The notes under the pieces are model-generated. The model did not search any database and was not told the origin of the DNA. It was given only the letters and a program-made list of their open reading frames with translations. DNA of 64,000 bases, from assembly GCA_001823065.1 (NCBI GenBank), contig MHTJ01000004.1:37839-101838 (forward strand), given 5' to 3'. Made by a program: the position numbers and the translations under genes. Of this stretch, positions 20,196 to 64,000 are shown in pieces; within the stretch, counting starts at the first letter, position 1; every line of letters begins with the position of its first letter. Source of the DNA: Candidatus Vogelbacteria bacterium RIFOXYD1_FULL_44_32. GTDB taxonomy: Bacteria > Patescibacteriota > Minisyncoccia > Phycocordibacterales > XYD1-FULL-46-19.

Positions 20196-21077
20196 ATGAA
20201 AAAAATCCTTATTATTGGGGGCGGGGAAATAGGCCAAGCCCTCGCCCAGCTTCTATTGGTTCACGAGCCAGTGATTTTTGATAAAGATGAAACTAAAAAT
20301 AAGGCCGGTCGGCCTTTAGCCGAATTATTAGCGGAAGCGGCCATTGTTTTTCTGGCGGTTCCAACTCAGGCCTTAGCGTCGGTTGGCAAGGAGATATCTT
20401 CGCATCTAAAAACCGAAGCTGTGGTCGTTTCTGTTTCTAAAGGCGCTAGTGCCAACGGAAATTTTTCTTTCGAAATTTTAGCCGAAGTATTACCCAATAA
20501 CCCGTTGGTGTTTATGGGTGGGCCGATGCTCGCTGCAGAAATTAAGGCGGGTAAAAAAGCGGGGGCCACCCTTGGTAGTGAATCAGCCGAGGCTCGTCTG
20601 GTGGTACGGGAGATTTTTGCCCACTCCAATCTGTTACTCAAAGAGTCGGATGATGCCACTGGGGTGGCCTTGGCTGGATTGTTAAAAAATTTTTATGCTT
20701 TGGGCCTGGCGGTAGCCGAAGAAGTTGGGGTCGGTGCCAATACTAAAGGGGCTTTAGTGGCCTCGGCCTTGGCTGAAATTACCGAGCTTTTGGTGTCATT
20801 TGGGGGTAAGGCCGAAACCGCTTATTCTTTAGCTGGTCTAGGCGACCTGGTGGCCACTGCTTCCAGTGAACATAGTCGCAATCGGACTGCTGGTCGCGAC
20901 CTAGTGAGGATTGGTAAATGTCCTATCGAAAGTGAGGGTAGCCTAGCCTTGCCTCTAGTTTGGCCACGGCTAGAAAGCAAGTTGGCGGGCATGCCATTTT
21001 TGGCAGCCATTGGCGAGGTGGTAGTCCACGGTAAAAATCCAAAAAATGTTTTTGAAAATATTCTCGAGAGGCTCTAA
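20196..21077 (+). CDS. gpsA: NAD(P)H-dependent glycerol-3-phosphate dehydrogenase
   Basis: IIGGGEIGQAL NAD-binding motif and the GpsA signature LAGLGDLVATASSEHSRNR. Confidence 0.75.
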   Translation: MKKILIIGGGEIGQALAQLLLVHEPVIFDKDETKNKAGRPLAELLAEAAIVFLAVPTQALASVGKEISSHLKTEAVVVSVSKGASANGNFSFEILAEVLPNNPLVFMGGPMLAAEIKAGKKAGATLGSESAEARLVVREIFAHSNLLLKESDDATGVALAGLLKNFYALGLAVAEEVGVGANTKGALVASALAEITELLVSFGGKAETAYSLAGLGDLVATASSEHSRNRTAGRDLVRIGKCPIESEGSLALPLVWPRLESKLAGMPFLAAIGEVVVHGKNPKNVFENILERL

Positions 21078-22260
21078 ATCTAAACAAAAAAAATTTCTAG
21101 TCCTTGATGTTGGTACTACTGGCGTCAAGGGTATTGTGTTTGCCGACGATGGTACTGTTTTAGCCAAGTCTTATCGTTTTTTAAAAAAGAATCATCCCAA
21201 GAAAGGTTGGGTTGAGCAAGACCCAATGGAAATGGTCTCGGCTAGTATTTTTGTTTTGCGCAATGCCCTAGATTTAGCCAAACTGACGGCTACAGATATT
21301 ACCGCTTGTGGTATTACCAACCAGCGCGAAACGACTATTTTGTGGGATAAAAATACCGGTTTGCCGGTTTGTCCGGCTATTGTGTGGGAAGATAATCGGA
21401 CCAAAGATTGGTGCGATGATCTGGCGCAAAAACATGGACCATTGGTTAGAGAAAAAACCGGACTTTTGATAGAACCATATTTTTCCGCTTCCAAAATTCG
21501 CTGGATTTTAAAAAATTCAGCTCAAGCCGAAAAGTTAAAACGGGAAGGTAATTTACTTTTTGGCACGGTCGACTCGTGGATTTTGTGGAACTTGTCCGAC
21601 GAGGCTGTTCATGCCACCGACTATACCAATGCTTCGCGGACCCTTTTGTATGATATTAAAGAGAAAAAATGGAACTCGGAATTGTTGGAAATTTTTTCAA
21701 TACCAAGCAATATCTTACCGCAAGTTTTAGATTCGGCCGGGCGTTTTGGTAGTCTACGTCGCGATATTGTTAGTGGGGAGATACCGATTGGAGCGATCAT
21801 TGGTGATCAAGAAGCCAGTGCTGTGGCTGCCGCGCTCGAGCGGGGGGTGACCAAAGTCACTTATGGTACCGGGGCGTTTATTGCCCAAGGGTTAGGCCAA
21901 AATTTTGAACTTCATGATGGTTTTTACACCACTTTAGTACCCGGCTTGTATGGGCCCGAGTATATGCTAGAGGCCAAAGTCAGTGGCTATGGCGACCAGG
22001 TAGGAAAATATTTAAAAGACCCAGTCAAACTAAAAGAAGTTTTGGAAAGTCTAACCAAAGAAGTGGGACAAGTGTTAGAGCGTCTGCCTTTACCGGTGTC
22101 TAAAGTTATGGCTGACGGAGGGATTACCCAAGCCGAGTTTTTGTTGGCGGAACAAGAACGAGTTTCGGGAATAAAAATGGTTAAACAAAAAATATACGAT
22201 GGTACCAGTCTGGGGGTGCTATATCTACTGCAAGACTTTTTGAAACAACCAAAAGTTTGA
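21046..22260 (+). CDS. glpK: Glycerol kinase-like FGGY carbohydrate kinase (short form)
   Basis: FGGY N-terminus LVLDVGTTGVKG and GlpK-like ITNQRETTILWDKNTG. It overlaps gpsA by 32 nt; the start is uncertain. Confidence 0.7.
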   Translation: MFLKIFSRGSKSKQKKFLVLDVGTTGVKGIVFADDGTVLAKSYRFLKKNHPKKGWVEQDPMEMVSASIFVLRNALDLAKLTATDITACGITNQRETTILWDKNTGLPVCPAIVWEDNRTKDWCDDLAQKHGPLVREKTGLLIEPYFSASKIRWILKNSAQAEKLKREGNLLFGTVDSWILWNLSDEAVHATDYTNASRTLLYDIKEKKWNSELLEIFSIPSNILPQVLDSAGRFGSLRRDIVSGEIPIGAIIGDQEASAVAAALERGVTKVTYGTGAFIAQGLGQNFELHDGFYTTLVPGLYGPEYMLEAKVSGYGDQVGKYLKDPVKLKEVLESLTKEVGQVLERLPLPVSKVMADGGITQAEFLLAEQERVSGIKMVKQKIYDGTSLGVLYLLQDFLKQPKV

Positions 22261-22297
22261 CAAATTTTATAAGAAGTATATAAAGAGAGAAGATTTT

Positions 22298-22458
22298 TCT
22301 CGTGGGCGACGCCAGCAATGCCGCAACGTGCTGGGATGCTCCCTCCTTGTTTGTCGCCCACGAGAACCTTTGGCCACCTTTCCCTATCCGGAAGAGAGGA
22401 CTTGCTGGTTTTACCCCATTCCAGCTCCTTACTCTCTTTCGGATAGGGGTTTTATTTT
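22298..22458 (+). terminator. Two nested long inverted repeats downstream of glpK, the second ending in a T tract
   Basis: Inverted repeat tctcgtgggcgac/gtcgcccacgaga (22298-22365), and ccctatccggaagagag/ctctctttcggataggg (22382-22449) followed by ttttatttt. Confidence 0.5.
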
Positions 22459-22463
22459 GCCTA

Positions 22464-22491
22464 TTGACAAAAAAGTAGGGGGTGCTATAAT
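22464..22491 (+). promoter_or_regulatory. Consensus sigma70-type promoter (TTGACA-16nt-TATAAT)
   Basis: TTGACA at 22464-22469 and TATAAT at 22486-22491. Confidence 0.6.
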
Positions 22492-22497
22492 GGGGAT

Positions 22498-22790
22498 TGA
22501 ACAAGTGAATGACCAACTGACGGAAGGAGGTGATGTCTATGTTGGCCACGAAGTCCCTTGAACATTATTTTGATATGAAGACGACGGCAACCACCGCCAC
22601 GGCCTGACCGGCCATCGGCGCGCGCCCCAACAAACCGGGCATAGGGCCCGGGGAGGAATACCCATGAACATTCGGCGTCCGCGCGACTCAGCCGGCTAGG
22701 TACTCTAGCCATCTGCGTCGCAAATAAATTTGCCGTCCCCCGACCACGTGCCTTTATGGCAATCGCGCACGGGGGGCGGCTTTTCTTTTA
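22498..22790 (+). ncRNA. Candidate ~290-nt GC-rich transcript (promoter to terminator), possibly dual-function with a micro-ORF
   Basis: The unit starts at a consensus promoter and ends at the hairpin gccgtccccc...ggggggcggc plus a T tract (22732-22790). It is GC-rich with several internal hairpins and contains no long ORF. Confidence 0.3.
22539..22607 (+). CDS. SD-led 22-codon micro-ORF (MLATKSLEHYFDMKTTATTATA)
   Basis: AGGAGG at 22525-22530, 8 nt before the ATG at 22539; TGA stop at 22605. Confidence 0.25.
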   Translation: MLATKSLEHYFDMKTTATTATA

Positions 22791-23783
22791 CAATTTTTTA
22801 GGAGCGTAATCAGCTGGAGCTTCAGCTAAATATTTTTCAATTTTTTCTTTGGTCAAAAGGCCAGATTGGGCACCAACAGATTGCACTACTGACATCGAGT
22901 TTATCGGCGCGCGCTTGAGCGCCTCCGGGACACTCATTCCTAAAGCAATAAAAGAAGTAAAGGTCGAGGCAAAAGCGTCACCGGCTCCCGTGCGACTTAT
23001 TGGTGATTTTGGGTCGGGGTAAATTGGCATTTGCCACATGTCGGTACCGTCAAAAGTGTAGGCGCCATTTGGCCCGTCAGTCAGACCCACTATTTTGGGA
23101 CCCAAATTTTTAATGCTGGTCAATAGATTTTTCACATCAGTCTCGTCTGGAGTTTTTAATATTCGCCGTGCTTCTTCTAGGTTGCAGACAAATATTTCGG
23201 TCCGAGCAAAAATATCGGGCAGTTTATCTGGGCCCAAATTTATTTGAAAAGTCCCTGGTTGAAAGGCTAATTTGGTTTCGGGGTGAGCCAAAAGCCAGGT
23301 CGCCAACTGGTGGTGAAAATCAAGCGAGTTTTCACCTAGCGAGCTAAGGTAAATCCAGCGCGGGTTGCCAATATCCGGCAAACTATAATCATATTTTTCG
23401 TGCTTAATTAAAATAGTCCGTTCGGCGCCATACCACAAAACATAATGATAATTGGTTTTTTGGCCGGCATTGGTTTTTACCAAATCAGTCGCGACATTTT
23501 CCTTAGCTAAACTTGCTAGGGCTTCTTTACCTTCGTCGTCATCACCAATATTAGTCAGAAGACCAGTAGTAAGGCCCAGACGGGAAGCCGAGACAGCGGC
23601 ATTGGGCGAATTGCCGACCGCAGGCACAATGGTGACCGACTCGTAGGGGATTTTGTCACCGAAAGCCAGACAGATTTTGCAATTGTCTTTATTAATATCA
23701 CAATTGACCTCGGCCTCTTGCAGTTTAATAAAAGCATCAGTAGTAATATCGCCAATTGCTAAAATGTCTAGTTTTTTATTCAT
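22788..23783 (-). CDS. PfkB-family carbohydrate kinase (ribokinase-like)
   Basis: LDILAIGDITTD N-terminal motif and the GAGDAF anion hole. Start chosen at MNKKLD, which has an upstream TATAAT and AAAGG. Confidence 0.8.
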   Translation of the reverse strand: MNKKLDILAIGDITTDAFIKLQEAEVNCDINKDNCKICLAFGDKIPYESVTIVPAVGNSPNAAVSASRLGLTTGLLTNIGDDDEGKEALASLAKENVATDLVKTNAGQKTNYHYVLWYGAERTILIKHEKYDYSLPDIGNPRWIYLSSLGENSLDFHHQLATWLLAHPETKLAFQPGTFQINLGPDKLPDIFARTEIFVCNLEEARRILKTPDETDVKNLLTSIKNLGPKIVGLTDGPNGAYTFDGTDMWQMPIYPDPKSPISRTGAGDAFASTFTSFIALGMSVPEALKRAPINSMSVVQSVGAQSGLLTKEKIEKYLAEAPADYAPKKL

Positions 23784-23819
23784 TTCTAAATTATACCTTT
23801 CTCTGTAATTATTCCCAAA

Positions 23820-24554
23820 AATATTGGACACCGAGTGTCCAATATTTTAAACTTATGATAATGAGAAAGATAAAAATTTGTGAGGGGGAGTATTATCACA
23901 TTTACAATCGTGGAGTAGATAAAAAAGACATTTTTATTGATAAACGAGATTACGCCCGGTTCTTATTTTGTGTTTTGTTTTTCCAATCGCCACTTTCATT
24001 AGTTAATCCTCCCTCCTATATTAATTATTTTATTGGACACTCGGTGTTCAATATTTCTCAAAAAATTAAAAAACAAATAATTAGTGATAAGTATGTTGAG
24101 TTGGTGTCTTTTATATTTATGCCCAATCATTTCCATTTAATTGTTAAGGAAAAGGTGGCAGGGGGAATTTCTCAATATATGCAAAGAATTCAAAATTCTT
24201 TTACAAAATATTTTAATACAAAATATAAAAAGAATGGGCATTTATTTCAGGGGCCATATCAAATTGTTTATATTGAAGATGATGAACAGTTACTTTATTT
24301 ATCATCATATATACATCGGAATTGTCGGGTACTTAATGGTTGGAAGAATAAGGAGGAAAAGTATCCGTGGTCAAGCTACTCTGATTTTTTAGGCCCAAAT
24401 CGGTTTGGTGGTCTATTAGAACCAGAAATTATTATGTCCGAATTTAATAATGCTGGTGATTATAAAATAGAGGTTCAAAACAGTGGCGCCAAAGAGATAA
24501 TTGAAGATTTATTAATTGATAATTGATAATATTGGACACTCGGTGTCCAATATT
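23820..24554 (+). mobile_element. IS200/IS605-family (or RAYT-like) element with 27-bp palindromic termini
   Basis: aatattggacaccgagtgtccaatatt at 23820-23846 and its reverse complement at 24528-24554 flank a HuH tyrosine-transposase ORF. Confidence 0.7.
23855..24526 (+). CDS. tnpA: IS200-like HuH tyrosine transposase (TnpA / REP-associated-like)
   Basis: HIYNRG, HuH motif MPNHFHLIV and catalytic-Tyr motif YIHRN. Start taken at MIMRKIKI. Confidence 0.75.
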   Translation: MIMRKIKICEGEYYHIYNRGVDKKDIFIDKRDYARFLFCVLFFQSPLSLVNPPSYINYFIGHSVFNISQKIKKQIISDKYVELVSFIFMPNHFHLIVKEKVAGGISQYMQRIQNSFTKYFNTKYKKNGHLFQGPYQIVYIEDDEQLLYLSSYIHRNCRVLNGWKNKEEKYPWSSYSDFLGPNRFGGLLEPEIIMSEFNNAGDYKIEVQNSGAKEIIEDLLIDN

Positions 24555-41894: not shown

Positions 41895-42007
41895 GGTTGC
41901 AAATGCTTGACCCAGCCCCTGCCCAGGCCGAGGGCGGGTGCCGAATAGGCACATCTCCCTTGTGTGTGAAGCGCGAGGCCGTATGACCTCTGGGGCTTGG
42001 GTATTAG

Positions 42008-42228
42008 GGCGCTCGCCTAGCTTCCCTTTCAAAACACATCGCCACACCTCTAGAGGTGTGGCGATTCTGCTCCACCGTGGCCGTTTGGCCTTGCCCCTGC
42101 TGGGGCAAAATACCTAAGGCCAAAACCCTGCCGGCCGACAGCTCCGCAAGGTTTTGGAAAGGGAACTAGGCTCACTAACTCGAAAAAGATAAATGGTCAG
42201 CAAAAGGAGTAAGCTCGCTGGGTTGGGG
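42008..42228. repeat. Structured intergenic repeat, family B copy 1
   Basis: Shares a ~170-nt core with 51637-51810 and 54513-54690 (cctttccaaacaca...ctgctccagcggggccgtttggcc...ggccaaaaccctgccggccg...ccgcaaggtttggaaaggg...ctcgctgggttgg). This copy has an extra ~35-nt insert before the 3' tail. Confidence 0.75.
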
Positions 42229-50940: not shown

Positions 50941-51636
50941 ATGAATACAGAACCCCAGAAATTTGCAGAGGCCATTGGTATTGGTTTCACTAATATAGAT
51001 TTTTTGATTCAGGCCTTTACGCATCGGTCTTATTTAAATGAGCATCGGGAAATTAGCCACGACCACAACGAACGGCTCGAGTTTTTGGGTGACGCCGTCC
51101 TCGAGCTAGTGGTCACCAATTTTCTATACAAAACTTTTCCCGGGAAACCCGAGGGCGAGCTGACGGCCTACCGGGCCGCTTTGGTCAACACCACTACTCT
51201 GTCGGATGCGGCCAAAAAACTAGGGATGAATGATTATTTGCTATTGTCCAAAGGGGAAGCCAAAGACACCGGCCGGGCCCGCCAATATATTTTAGCCAAC
51301 ACTTTCGAGGCGGTGATTGGCGCCATTTATCTTGACCAGGGTTATGATGTGGCCACGGACTTTATCACGACCAACTTATTGTATTTGATTAAGGAAATTG
51401 TGGCCAAAAATTTGTGGCAAGATGCCAAAAGTTTTTTTCAAGAAAAGGCGCAGGAGGTAGAGGGGGTGACACCGGCTTATGAAGTATTGAAACAGATTGG
51501 ACCCGACCACAACAAATGCTTTACTGTTGGCGTGTATTTGCGGGACGAACTAGTCGCCGAAGGGGAGGGACACTCGAAACAAGAGGCGGAACAGGAGGCC
51601 GCAAAGGGGGGATTGGAGAAAAAGGGGTGGGGGTAA
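50941..51636 (+). CDS. rnc: Ribonuclease III
   Basis: RNase III signature ERLEFLGDAVLEL and a C-terminal dsRBD. Confidence 0.9.
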   Translation: MNTEPQKFAEAIGIGFTNIDFLIQAFTHRSYLNEHREISHDHNERLEFLGDAVLELVVTNFLYKTFPGKPEGELTAYRAALVNTTTLSDAAKKLGMNDYLLLSKGEAKDTGRARQYILANTFEAVIGAIYLDQGYDVATDFITTNLLYLIKEIVAKNLWQDAKSFFQEKAQEVEGVTPAYEVLKQIGPDHNKCFTVGVYLRDELVAEGEGHSKQEAEQEAAKGGLEKKGWG

Positions 51637-51810
51637 GCACTCGCCTAGCTTCCCTTTCCAAACACAGAAAAAGCCCCAGCGGGCTTTTCCTTCTGCTCCA
51701 GCGGGGCCGTTTGGCCTAGTGCCTACTGGCACAAAATTCTCCAAAGGCCAAAACCCTGCCGGCCGACACCTCCGCAAGGTTTGGAAAGGGAACTAGGCTC
51801 GCTGGGTTGG
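51637..51810. repeat. Structured intergenic repeat, family B copy 2
   Basis: Starts immediately after the rnc stop. Same core as copies 1 and 3 but with different hairpin inserts (aaaagccccagcgggctttt; gtgcctactggcac). Confidence 0.75.
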
Positions 51811-51843
51811 ATAATAAAGTAGAAGTATAGGTGTTTTTTGTCT

Positions 51844-61476: not shown

Positions 61477-61511
61477 TTTAACCGAGCACCAAGACTTTAG
61501 CTGGTGCTTGG

Positions 61512-61539
61512 TTGACACTTTTTTACCGTCTGGTATACT
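61512..61539 (+). promoter_or_regulatory. Near-consensus sigma70-type promoter (TTGACA-16nt-TATACT) for the rpoB leader
   Basis: TTGACA at 61512-61517 and TATACT at 61534-61539. Confidence 0.55.
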
Positions 61540-61812
61540 GTCCCCAATTCGGCAAGATTGAGTTGCGACCGCCGTCCGAAGCAACGTTTCTTGCATTTAT
61601 CTCAGATGGTTTTAAGCCCGAAGCGTCAAGCAGAGGGAGTTCTGTGGTTTGGTTTCATTTGTCATTTCTTTTTCGGCAGATGTTTTCTGGAGTACGGATA
61701 TTTTCTTGCTAGAAAATTCCTCGAGCTCGCGCCGCCGCGCTCCCTAGTCTCCAGCAAACACCCGCCTTCAACGAAATGATTTTGGGTAATTATTTTTTAA
61801 TAATAATTTTTA

Positions 61813-64000
61813 ATGGAGCAAAAAACTTTTTCGCGGTTTAAAAAACCGCTCGCTGAGATCCCGAATCTAATGGAACTACAGACCACCTCGTATCAGTGGC
61901 TGGTGAAGTTGGGGCTAAAAGAATTGTTTGAAGAATTTTCGTCAATCAAAGATTACTCGGAAAAGAAGTTTCAACTTGATTTTACTAGTTTTCAGCTCGA
62001 TGAACCAAAATACGACGAGCATTATGCGAAGGAAAACAAACTTTCTTATGACGCTCCCTTGCGCGTCAAGGTCAAGCTCCACAACAAGACTTTAAATCAG
62101 GACAAAGAACAGGAAATCTTTTTGGCTGATTTCCCACTTATGACCGCACACGGGACGTTTATTATCAACGGTATCGAGCGGGTGGTTGTGCCCCAGCTAG
62201 CGCGGTCGTTTGGTGTCTTTTTTACCGACAATGATATTCGTGGGAATAAATATTTTGGGGCAAAAATCATTCCCTCACGCGGGGTTTGGATTGAATTTGA
62301 GACGGAAGCGGATGGAGCTATTTATGTCCGCATCGACCGCAAGCGCAAGTTTCCGGTGAGTTCGCTGTTGCGGATTTTAGGTGATTTGGCAGGGCAAAAG
62401 ATGGAGGGGGAGGATATGGAAAAATTGTTTGCTGACCAAGGGGTAGATATAAATTATATTAAAGCCACCTTAGCCAAAGACCACGCCAAAACGGCCGAAG
62501 ATTCCTATGTCGAGGTCTATAAACGTTTGCGTGATTCTGACCTAGCCACGGCGGCCAATTCGAAAGAATTTGTGTCTAGTCTTTTTACGCGGGAAAAATA
62601 TGACTTTTCAGTGGTGGGGCGGATGCGGTTTAACGAGCGCTTCAACTTACCAAATACCGATAAAACTAGAGAAAAAAGAATCATCGATTTAGCCGATGTG
62701 GTTTTGATTATTGCCCATGTTATTACCCTAAACACCACTAAAGGGGCTAAAGCCGACGATATTGACCACCTCGGATTTAGACGAGTGCGGTCAGTGGGGG
62801 AAATGTTACAACAGAAATTGAAAGTGGGTATGACCCAAATGAAGCGTAATATTCAAGATCGGATGTCGACCGTGGAAGCGACCACTTTGCTTCCTATTCA
62901 ACTGATCTCACCTCGCCCCCTTCAGGCCCGCTTGAAAGAATTTTTTACGACTAACCAGCTGTCTCAATTTATGGGGCAGGAAAACGTCTTGGCCGAAATC
63001 GAGCACCTGCGTCGTTTGTCCGCTCTCGGACCGGGCGGTCTTACTCGCGAACGGGCTGGGCTCGAGGTACGTGATGTGCACACCTCCCACTATGGTCGGG
63101 TGTGTCCGATTCACACCCCCGAAGGGCCAAATATTGGTCTGATTCTTTATTTATCTTCTTACGCTCGAGTCAATGAATACGGTATTATTGAATCGCCTTA
63201 TCGCAAAGTGCTCAATGGTAAAATTACCGAGGAGCTAATATTCCTCAATGCTTTAGAGGAAGAAAAATATAATATTGCGCATGCGGGGGTACGTTACGAC
63301 GACACGGGCAAACTTTTAGATGAAATGGTGGAGGTGCGGGTAAATGCCAAACCGGGTTTGATTGCTGCCAAAGAGGTGAATTTGATTGATGTCGCTCCAA
63401 ACCAGGCGTACTCGATTGCTACTTCGATGATTCCATTTCTGGAGCACGATGATGCCAACCGCGCGCTGATGGGTTCAAATATGCAGAAACAGTCCGTACC
63501 TCTTTTGGTACCAGAAGCCCCCTTGGTTGCGACTGGAGTAGAAGGTAAAGTGGCTCGCGACTCGGGACGCATAATTTGTGCCCAGCGGAGCGGGGTGGTA
63601 AGCAAAGTTGATGGTCGTCATGTGGCGGTCAAAAATGATGATGGGAAAGTGGAAGCTTATGATTTGGTTACTTTTTCTAAAACTAATAATGACTCAATCT
63701 TTCACCAGCGAGCAGTGGTGGGGATTGGCCAGAAAGTGAAAAAAGGGGATTTGTTGGTAGACACCTCATCTTCAGACCAGGGCCAAGCGGCCGTGGGTCA
63801 AAATGCCTTGGTGGCTTTTATGTCTTGGTATGGGGCCAACTACGAAGATGCGATTATTATTTCCGAACGGTTGGTAAAAAACAGTAAATTTTCTTCTGTT
63901 TGTATTGAAGAATTTCAAGCCGATGTCCGTGATACTAAACTAGGGCCAGAAATTACGACCCATGATATTCCTAATGTGGGTGAAGGTAAGTTGCGCAATC
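61813..64000 (+). CDS. rpoB: DNA-directed RNA polymerase beta subunit (3'-truncated by window edge)
   Basis: Frame open from ATG 61813 to the window end. N-terminus LMELQTTSYQWL, then FFTTNQLSQFMGQEN and the signature GRVCPIHTPEGPNIGLI. Confidence 0.9.
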   Translation, partial: MEQKTFSRFKKPLAEIPNLMELQTTSYQWLVKLGLKELFEEFSSIKDYSEKKFQLDFTSFQLDEPKYDEHYAKENKLSYDAPLRVKVKLHNKTLNQDKEQEIFLADFPLMTAHGTFIINGIERVVVPQLARSFGVFFTDNDIRGNKYFGAKIIPSRGVWIEFETEADGAIYVRIDRKRKFPVSSLLRILGDLAGQKMEGEDMEKLFADQGVDINYIKATLAKDHAKTAEDSYVEVYKRLRDSDLATAANSKEFVSSLFTREKYDFSVVGRMRFNERFNLPNTDKTREKRIIDLADVVLIIAHVITLNTTKGAKADDIDHLGFRRVRSVGEMLQQKLKVGMTQMKRNIQDRMSTVEATTLLPIQLISPRPLQARLKEFFTTNQLSQFMGQENVLAEIEHLRRLSALGPGGLTRERAGLEVRDVHTSHYGRVCPIHTPEGPNIGLILYLSSYARVNEYGIIESPYRKVLNGKITEELIFLNALEEEKYNIAHAGVRYDDTGKLLDEMVEVRVNAKPGLIAAKEVNLIDVAPNQAYSIATSMIPFLEHDDANRALMGSNMQKQSVPLLVPEAPLVATGVEGKVARDSGRIICAQRSGVVSKVDGRHVAVKNDDGKVEAYDLVTFSKTNNDSIFHQRAVVGIGQKVKKGDLLVDTSSSDQGQAAVGQNALVAFMSWYGANYEDAIIISERLVKNSKFSSVCIEEFQADVRDTKLGPEITTHDIPNVGEGKLRN

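Follow-up and report, generated by a model that had tools for sequence, protein, structure and literature searches.

A candidate small mRNA with a conserved 11-codon open reading frame beside pfkB in a narrow group of Vogelbacteria

Introduction

The 3' ends of two convergent genes in a metagenome-assembled genome of an uncultured Candidatus Vogelbacteria bacterium enclose a GC-rich segment with a consensus promoter at one end and a terminator at the other, and the question raised by this locus is what such a unit makes. A reading of the DNA on its own, here called the sequence-only reading, had described a stand-alone promoter-to-terminator unit with micro-ORFs led by Shine-Dalgarno (SD) sequences and no conventional gene, a layout that recurs in relatives. 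Its emphasis lay on a 22-codon frame (ORF1) with a Thr/Ala-rich C-terminus, and an 11-codon frame (ORF2) was mentioned in passing. Comparison with relatives overturned this single-sequence ranking: the eye-catching ORF1 is unconstrained and the inconspicuous ORF2 is constrained. Hardly any of the small proteins and non-coding RNAs of the Candidate Phyla Radiation have been charted, and standard gene callers overlook them. If it is translated, ORF2 would rank with the shortest free-standing bacterial genes for which purifying selection on the peptide is clear; a narrow and patchy distribution limits its practical impact.

Locus and gene neighbourhood

The window, by which we mean the whole stretch of 64,000 nt that was analysed and to which coordinates refer unless a relative is named, harbours the flagged region in a gap of 527 nt (22261-22787) with a GC content of 0.53, against 0.457 for the window. 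Two small units are housed in this gap, unit 1 upstream and unit 2, the flagged one, downstream. The surrounding genes encode enzymes of glycolysis and the pentose-phosphate pathway, and the neighbours recorded in the window and its relatives are gpsA, the glpK-like gene, pfkB, fba, tkt, rpe, rpiB, an FAD oxidase and an IS200-type transposase. The pfkB protein has 100% identity to one of Candidatus Vogelbacteria bacterium RIFOXYD1_FULL_44_32, and this DNA is also found on scaffold ANAN16-1_SAMN03842451 scaffold_3. A repeat and MITE check found one copy of unit 2 in the window. The main features are the following.

21046-22260, plus strand: glpK-like FGGY gene, left flank of the gap
22464-22491, plus strand: unit-2 promoter, TTGACA-16-TGcTATAAT
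22524-22534, plus strand: SD1, AAGGAGGTGAT
22539-22607, plus strand: ORF1, ATG at 22539, 22 codons, MLATKSLEHYFDMKTTATTATA and stop
22608-22634, plus strand: remnant of a GC-rich structured spacer
22635-22651, plus strand: hairpin CCGGGC-AUAGG-GCCCGG, immediately 5' of SD2
22652-22657, plus strand: SD2, GGAGGA, 6 nt 5' of the ORF2 start codon
22664-22699, plus strand: ORF2, 11 codons, MNIRRPRDSAG and TAG stop, the conserved core of unit 2
22683-22721, plus strand: stop-codon hairpin with an inner and an outer stem, spanning the last ORF2 codons and the UAG
22732-22789, plus strand: intrinsic terminator, an 11-bp GC stem around a small hairpin, then UUUUCUUUU
22788-23831, minus strand: pfkB-family kinase gene, right flank of the gap, convergent with the glpK-like gene

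The elements named in the sequence-only reading were thus located: the SD followed after 8 nt by the ATG of the 22-codon frame, the second SD-led frame with its ATG at 22664, the next gene on the opposite strand (pfkB), and a GC content above that of the surroundings, which amounts to 0.66 across 22585-22780 compared with 0.457 for the window.

Distribution among relatives

To gather relatives at graded distance, the pfkB protein was run against the GTDB species genomes, and its homologues were then looked up. Unit 2 was found in five Vogelbacteria lineages, always convergent with the 3' end of pfkB, whose product is 71-88% identical to that of the window. These lineages and their ORF2 peptides are as follows.

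Window: MNIRRPRDSAG
L043, pfkB 88% identical: MNIRRPRDAAG
L007 (L044 and L045 identical over the region), pfkB 83% identical: MNIRRPRDRPD
L040 (L041 identical over the region), pfkB 79% identical: MNIRRPRDAPE
L042, pfkB 71% identical: MPTRRPRDLPM

Unit 2 was not present beside pfkB in L049 (pfkB 82% identical) or L046 (73%), nor in L047/L048, L050 and L051 (66-67%), and it was not found at any GTDB locus with a pfkB of 62% identity or less. Being absent beside pfkB in L049, L046, L047, L050 and L051, the unit is therefore either dispensable or located elsewhere in those genomes. As far as these loci indicate, unit 2 is limited to a narrow subclade of the Vogelbacteria, where its occurrence is patchy. 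L040 no longer has the glpK gene, but units 1 and 2 still stand beside pfkB. At L049 1172-1180 and L046 1808-1811 the convergent stop codons of the glpK-like gene and pfkB are only a few bases apart, and no terminator separates them.

A metagenome collection scanned with the pattern ATGAAYATHCGNCGNCCNCGNGAY returned six matches, on contigs of 57-61% GC and in unrelated contexts, which we attribute to chance; this collection did not recover the source genome itself and says little about the distribution of unit 2. Viral contigs gave no match.

An IS200/IS605-type Y1 transposase gene (23756-24526, plus strand) lies between pfkB and fba of the window in a segment of about 0.28 GC, and is regarded as a recent insertion because it is missing at the same position in L040, L042, L050 and L051.

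Promoter, predicted transcript and terminator

The promoter proposed in the sequence-only reading was confirmed, with 12 of 12 matching positions and a TG extension in addition. Five sites of the form TTGACA-N16-TATAAT with at most one mismatch occur in the window, versus 0.32 expected from shuffles, and consensus promoters appear to be in use in this genome. Transcription from the unit-2 promoter would start at about 22497-22499. The promoter design is identical in L040 (TTGACA-16-TGcTATAAT) and near-consensus in L042 (TTGACA-17-TAATAT); L007 retains the -10 element only, and in L043 the promoter region is poorly alignable and the contig ends just upstream.

At the other end, the GC-rich stem and T tract of the sequence-only reading correspond to a hairpin at 22732-22780 and a U tract, TTTTCTTTT, at 22781-22789. 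A simple terminator scan missed this terminator because its loop is long. It runs into the stop codon of pfkB (22788-22790) and would plausibly work in both directions, serving the convergent pfkB as well. A hairpin with a U tract is found at the equivalent position in all five lineages, with differing stem sequences.

Within the unit, the sequence AAGGAGG-N8-ATG occurs once in the window; it is also found in 14% of shuffles, so the SD-plus-ATG signal alone is not significant. Unit 2 is nevertheless more than a chance assembly, because its promoter, SD and terminator are conserved in relatives. Promoter, SD, start, stop and terminator stand in the right order for a bacterial small-protein gene, and this order is kept in the relatives.

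ORF2, the 11-codon frame

In each of the five lineages ORF2 has exactly 11 codons, a TAG stop and an SD 6-11 nt upstream. All nucleotide differences within codons 4-8, which encode RRPRD, are synonymous across the five lineages. Pairwise pS for these codons is 0.44-1.07, near saturation, and pN is 0 by inspection, two non-zero computed entries being path-averaging artefacts of changes from CGC to AGG or AGA. Third positions carry up to four bases, all four Pro codons are seen, and the three Arg positions are occupied by CGG/AGG, by CGT/CGA/CGG and by CGC/CGG/AGG/AGA/CGA, with switches between CGN and AGR. The last three codons evolve freely, with pN about equal to pS. As a rough minimum, at least 11 substitutions would have occurred in the RRPRD codons, all of them synonymous; taking about a third of random changes to be synonymous, the chance of this outcome can be roughly put at the order of 1e-5. 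Within this one narrow clade, from which all five lineages come, the codon comparison shows purifying selection on ORF2 at the peptide level.

An antisense gene was considered as the cause of this codon periodicity and was excluded, for the antisense frame sharing the third positions runs into stops a short way upstream in four of the five lineages and undergoes R/L changes precisely where the sense strand switches from CGN to AGR. Read-through of the UAG into a longer frame was likewise rejected: the downstream frames, as we translated them ourselves with no separate computation, are not conserved between lineages.

ORF2 has also been spared by three independent rearrangements, namely the loss of 230 nt in the window, a deletion in L007 and, in L042, the lack of ORF1. 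In L007 everything between SD1 and the ORF2 start is deleted, and SD1 is fused directly to ORF2. The minimal module accordingly consists of an SD, ORF2 and the terminator, since these were kept through all three events.

That unit 2 is a decaying gene remnant or neutral intergenic filler is very unlikely. Its patchy occurrence among close relatives and its large length changes would fit such decay. Against it stand the length, start, stop and RRPRD core of ORF2, kept despite near-saturated synonymous sites, and the retained promoter and terminator. The sequence-only reading had named alignment to a degraded fragment of a known protein gene as a finding that would undo it, and no protein or Pfam homology was found in any frame.

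Hairpins around ORF2 and a possible role in cis

Immediately 5' of SD2, a hairpin of different sequence occupies the equivalent site in L040, L043 and L042. The hairpin at the ORF2 stop codon has, in the window and L043, the inner stem GGCUAG, the loop GUACU and the closing strand CUAGCC; the stem in L040 is GAGUAG/CUACUC, equivalent to two compensatory pair changes, and its outer stems differ yet still pair. L042 has a different fold here and L007 none. Covariation among the window, L043 and L040 shows a stop-codon hairpin that is common in the group, not universal. It could hint that the act of translation, not a free peptide, is what matters.

The main rival to a small-peptide function is accordingly that translating ORF2 matters in itself, through arrest or through remodelling of structure. 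ORF2 would then be a cis-acting regulatory frame of the arrest or leader type, in which a ribosome reaching the hairpin-buried UAG remodels the 3' region of the RNA and could set transcript stability or read-through of the shared terminator into antisense pfkB. The last codons and stop lie within a hairpin with compensatory changes in three lineages, as such a role would have it, and the TAG is invariant though TAA is the commonest stop of the long ORFs in the window (35 of 55, with TGA in 5 of 55). The conserved residues lie 4-8 positions from the C terminus, and nascent-chain residues at this distance contact the upper exit tunnel. The constant convergence with pfkB and the terminator common to both also agree with a role in cis.

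A precedent is provided by PepNL, a peptide of 14 residues that can arrest termination and stalls at its own stop codon (PMC11890864). PepNL and ORF2 share, at the level of sequence, a very short ORF, a conserved peptide and a special-looking stop, which in ORF2 is an invariant UAG in a hairpin. PepNL lies upstream of pepN, whereas ORF2 has no downstream cistron and its stop-adjacent residues are variable.

This freedom beside the stop codon speaks against a cis-acting ORF2. Residues in that position are usually critical in arrest peptides. The lack of a hairpin in L007 and its different form in L042 point the same way, as does the gene order. A same-strand gene follows unit 2 in no lineage: the next gene is the convergent pfkB in the window, L007 and L043, and in L040 and L042 pfkB comes after a mini-unit that carries a promoter of its own. 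On inspection of one predicted fold, the stop hairpin and the terminator showed no alternative pairing of the antiterminator kind. We therefore regard a cis-acting ORF2 as rather unlikely.

The same gene order tells against the leader-peptide regulatory RNA suggested by the sequence-only reading, and a leader-peptide attenuator was rejected for want of a same-strand downstream gene in every lineage. Like the thrL, hisL and pheL attenuators, unit 2 has an SD-led micro-ORF, hairpins, an intrinsic terminator and codon-rich runs (Thr in ORF1, Arg in ORF2). The attenuator codon run is not conserved, as the Thr run of ORF1 occurs in the window only, and ORF2, unlike an attenuator, fixes the whole of RRPRD and not only Arg. 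Because Pro and Asp are fixed besides Arg, it is the peptide motif that is selected and not mere regulatory codons.

The RNA body and ORF1

The distance from the -10 box to the U tract is about 170 nt in L007, 270 nt in L042, 300 nt in the window and 560 nt in L040. The GC-rich spacer ranges from 0 to about 330 nt and in the alignment is about 230 nt shorter in the window than in L040 and L043. A GC-rich RNA of about 290 nt, as described in the sequence-only reading, is predicted for the window; the comparison indicates that its body is a deletion derivative of the longer L040/L043 form, and it is therefore not the conserved element. Folding of the whole RNA gave z = -2.1, with 8 of 200 shuffles equally good, a modest gain only.

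A functional product that is the RNA itself, a trans-acting small RNA with incidental or stabilising micro-ORFs, is an improbable reading of unit 2. It would account for a GC-rich, hairpin-rich transcript with its own promoter and terminator, for the covarying hairpins and for the location among other small units arranged in tandem, namely unit 1 and, in L040 and L042, a third unit. Over the range of unit lengths, however, ORF2 alone is common to all, and its variation at third positions and between CGN and AGR fits protein coding, not RNA pairing. The modest fold score and the lack of any Rfam match also count against it. With an RNA body that is not conserved, a function at the RNA level alone is unlikely.

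ORF1 is present in the window, L040 and L043 only. Its SD, complementary to what we take to be the canonical 3' end of 16S rRNA (the window itself has no 16S gene), is kept as GGAAGGAGGTGA in L043 and as GAAAGGAGGG in L040 and L007. In all three versions ORF1 has this SD and an AUG, runs for 22-24 codons, carries Ala as its last residue and stops within a small hairpin loop, the hairpin being GGCC-UGACC-GGCC in the window. The versions share just 3-6 of 22-24 residues, and pN/pS from a hand-made codon alignment of the three is 0.7-1.4, a comparison that shows no peptide-level selection on ORF1. The Thr/Ala-rich tail TTATTATA is found in the window version only, where five Thr stand in the last nine codons. 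Shortened in the window and lost in L007 and L042 with ORF2 retained, ORF1 and the GC-rich spacer appear to be accessory and dispensable, and would at most modulate access to ORF2.

These comparisons leave next to no likelihood for ORF1 as a RiPP-like precursor, a dual-function peptide or the leader of a Thr-codon attenuator. A strong SD and ATG in three lineages, the near-constant length, the C-terminal Ala in all three and the Thr codons of the window made such readings attractive. The pN/pS ratio, the few shared residues, the restriction of the Thr run to the window, the missing ORF1 in L007 and L042 and the absence of both modifying enzymes and a downstream gene oppose them, and we consider the RiPP and attenuator readings of ORF1 largely refuted. 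The weight that the sequence-only reading gave to ORF1 was thus misplaced, and its brief mention of ORF2, correct as to the existence of the frame, ranked too low what proved to be the conserved core in five lineages.

Family searches and known systems

Rfam models were unmatched in the window, in 22150-22900 at E <= 10 and in relatives at E <= 1; the best match, to the P35 sRNA model, reached 25.7 bits against a gathering score of 70 and aligns to the terminator hairpin only. Pfam gave nothing above threshold in long frames of either strand. A literature search on RRPRD, Vogelbacteria and small RNAs of the Candidate Phyla Radiation found nothing relevant.

Gene callers place spurious ORFs of 77 and 163 residues over the region. 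Searched against 5.8 billion proteins, these returned self matches and P0002 only. P0002 is a JGI gene call of 69 residues that covers 22489-22699 (plus strand), beginning at the -10 box and ending with the ORF2 stop, and has both in-frame TGA codons translated as Trp. Most likely P0002 is this very DNA translated with genetic code 4, and it does not count as independent evidence.

A tmRNA was suggested by an Ala-ending ORF1 with its stop in a hairpin loop. Unit 2 resembles tmRNA (SsrA) in that ORF1 ends in Ala-Ala or Thr-Ala, in the position of the stop and in having a GC-rich RNA of about 300 nt, but tmRNA requires a tRNA-like domain, which was not found here. ARAGORN reported two tRNAs and no tmRNA in the window, no T-arm motif was seen on reading, and standard and permuted tmRNA covariance models were unmatched in 22150-22900 at E <= 10 and in relatives at E <= 1. 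ORF1 moreover has its own SD and AUG, and the candidate was rejected. A type I toxin was rejected as well, the peptides of ORF1 and ORF2 being hydrophilic or basic and lacking a hydrophobic stretch.

The RiPP-like core of the sequence-only reading found no support, as modification enzymes were not found near unit 2 in any lineage; a RiPP precursor in general was rejected, with modification, maturation and export genes all absent near unit 2 in the window and in the neighbourhoods of its relatives. Of the two possible cores, ORF1 is unconserved and that of ORF2 is conserved but unaccompanied by enzymes. The mccA-type minigene, a 7-codon precursor of microcin C followed by a hairpin, is similar in its very short SD-led ORF, its hairpin and its peptide product; unit 2 differs in the lack of mccB-like, modification or export genes and in the unconserved C-terminal residue of ORF2.

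Small proteins and dual-function RNAs include SR1/SR1P of B. subtilis and SgrS/SgrT and Spot 42/SpfP of E. coli. Unit 2 shares with them a short transcript of its own with promoter and intrinsic terminator, a structured RNA and a selected SD-led small ORF, and differs in that its ORF has merely 11 codons, its RNA body is unconserved and there is no sequence or Rfam relationship. Unit 2 is filed as a small-protein gene or dual-function transcript in the generic sense only, and no described family matches. As judged from these searches, ORF2 is a new, lineage-restricted small ORF.

Proposed function of unit 2

In our view unit 2 is probably a small mRNA in which selection acts on an 11-residue basic peptide, M-N-I-R-R-P-R-D-x-x-x, either as the product or as the element that is translated. 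A sigma-70-type promoter would start an RNA of about 290 nt that ends at the intrinsic terminator shared with the convergent pfkB. Selection would maintain the SD-led ORF2, presumably translated, with a fixed core, MNIRRPRD, and three free residues. The basic RRPR core may act within the cell through binding to RNA or to the ribosome, as a released 11-mer or while still a nascent chain. Against this reading, a chain of 11 residues, the last three of them free to vary, could hardly adopt a specific fold.

A further reading is speculative and has a low probability. ORF2 might be a free-standing module that senses translation or acts on the ribosome. The ribosome would be the target of the nascent RRPRD chain or of the released 11-mer, and the hairpin at the UAG would control whether the message is normally stopped or processed into a stop-less form. 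ORF2 would in that case encode a tiny factor for translation quality or stress, peculiar to a symbiont with a reduced genome. The arfA and brfA genes produce hairpin-truncated messages that make ribosome-rescue factors, and these messages resemble the stop-less processing proposed here for the ORF2 message.

Adjacent small units and other structured elements

Unit 1 (22257-22458, plus strand) is a small RNA unit of about 165 nt directly upstream of unit 2. Its promoter, TTGACA-N16-TATAAA, overlaps the glpK stop codon. A closing stem of 12 bp (22299-22310/22353-22364) encloses a small hairpin and an exposed CUCCCUCCUU (22339-22348) that resembles an anti-Shine-Dalgarno sequence, and the unit ends in a terminator hairpin of 18 bp, with a fold z of -7.5. 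Unit 1 is unmatched in Rfam. It is 91% identical in L007, exceeding the conservation of the flanking genes, and has the same architecture with a covarying closing stem in L040. Unit 1 could be a regulator that binds Shine-Dalgarno sequences. Its CUCCCUCCUU can pair with the SDs of unit 2 over 7-9 bp; the predicted duplex of the two units is no better than with shuffled partners, which gives no support to unit 1 as a specific antisense partner of unit 2. Unit 2 is present and unit 1 absent in L042.

Between unit 2 and pfkB, L040 (4000-4180, minus strand) and L042 (4010-4150, minus strand) have a third mini-unit that is absent from the window. It consists of a promoter-like site, an SD, an ORF of 6 or 7 codons, a GC-rich tail and a terminator, the ORFs being unconserved (MSVRRH and MRTMVIA, each followed by a stop). 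With this unit in L040 and L042, the 3' flank of pfkB is thus an island of tandem small units in the clade.

Elsewhere in the window, a stretch of 1.8 kb (61477-63293) downstream of a trmD-like gene contains no ORF of at least 100 residues on either strand, and a near-consensus promoter lies inside it at 61512-61539. A paralogous pair of structured GC-rich elements of about 165 nt, unmatched in Rfam at the gathering score, occurs at 42003-42185 and 51636-51812 (both plus strand). Both copies have the long closing stem CUAGCUUCCCUUUC/GAAAGGGAACUAG and a conserved core, and two hairpins vary, with five compensatory pair changes between the copies.
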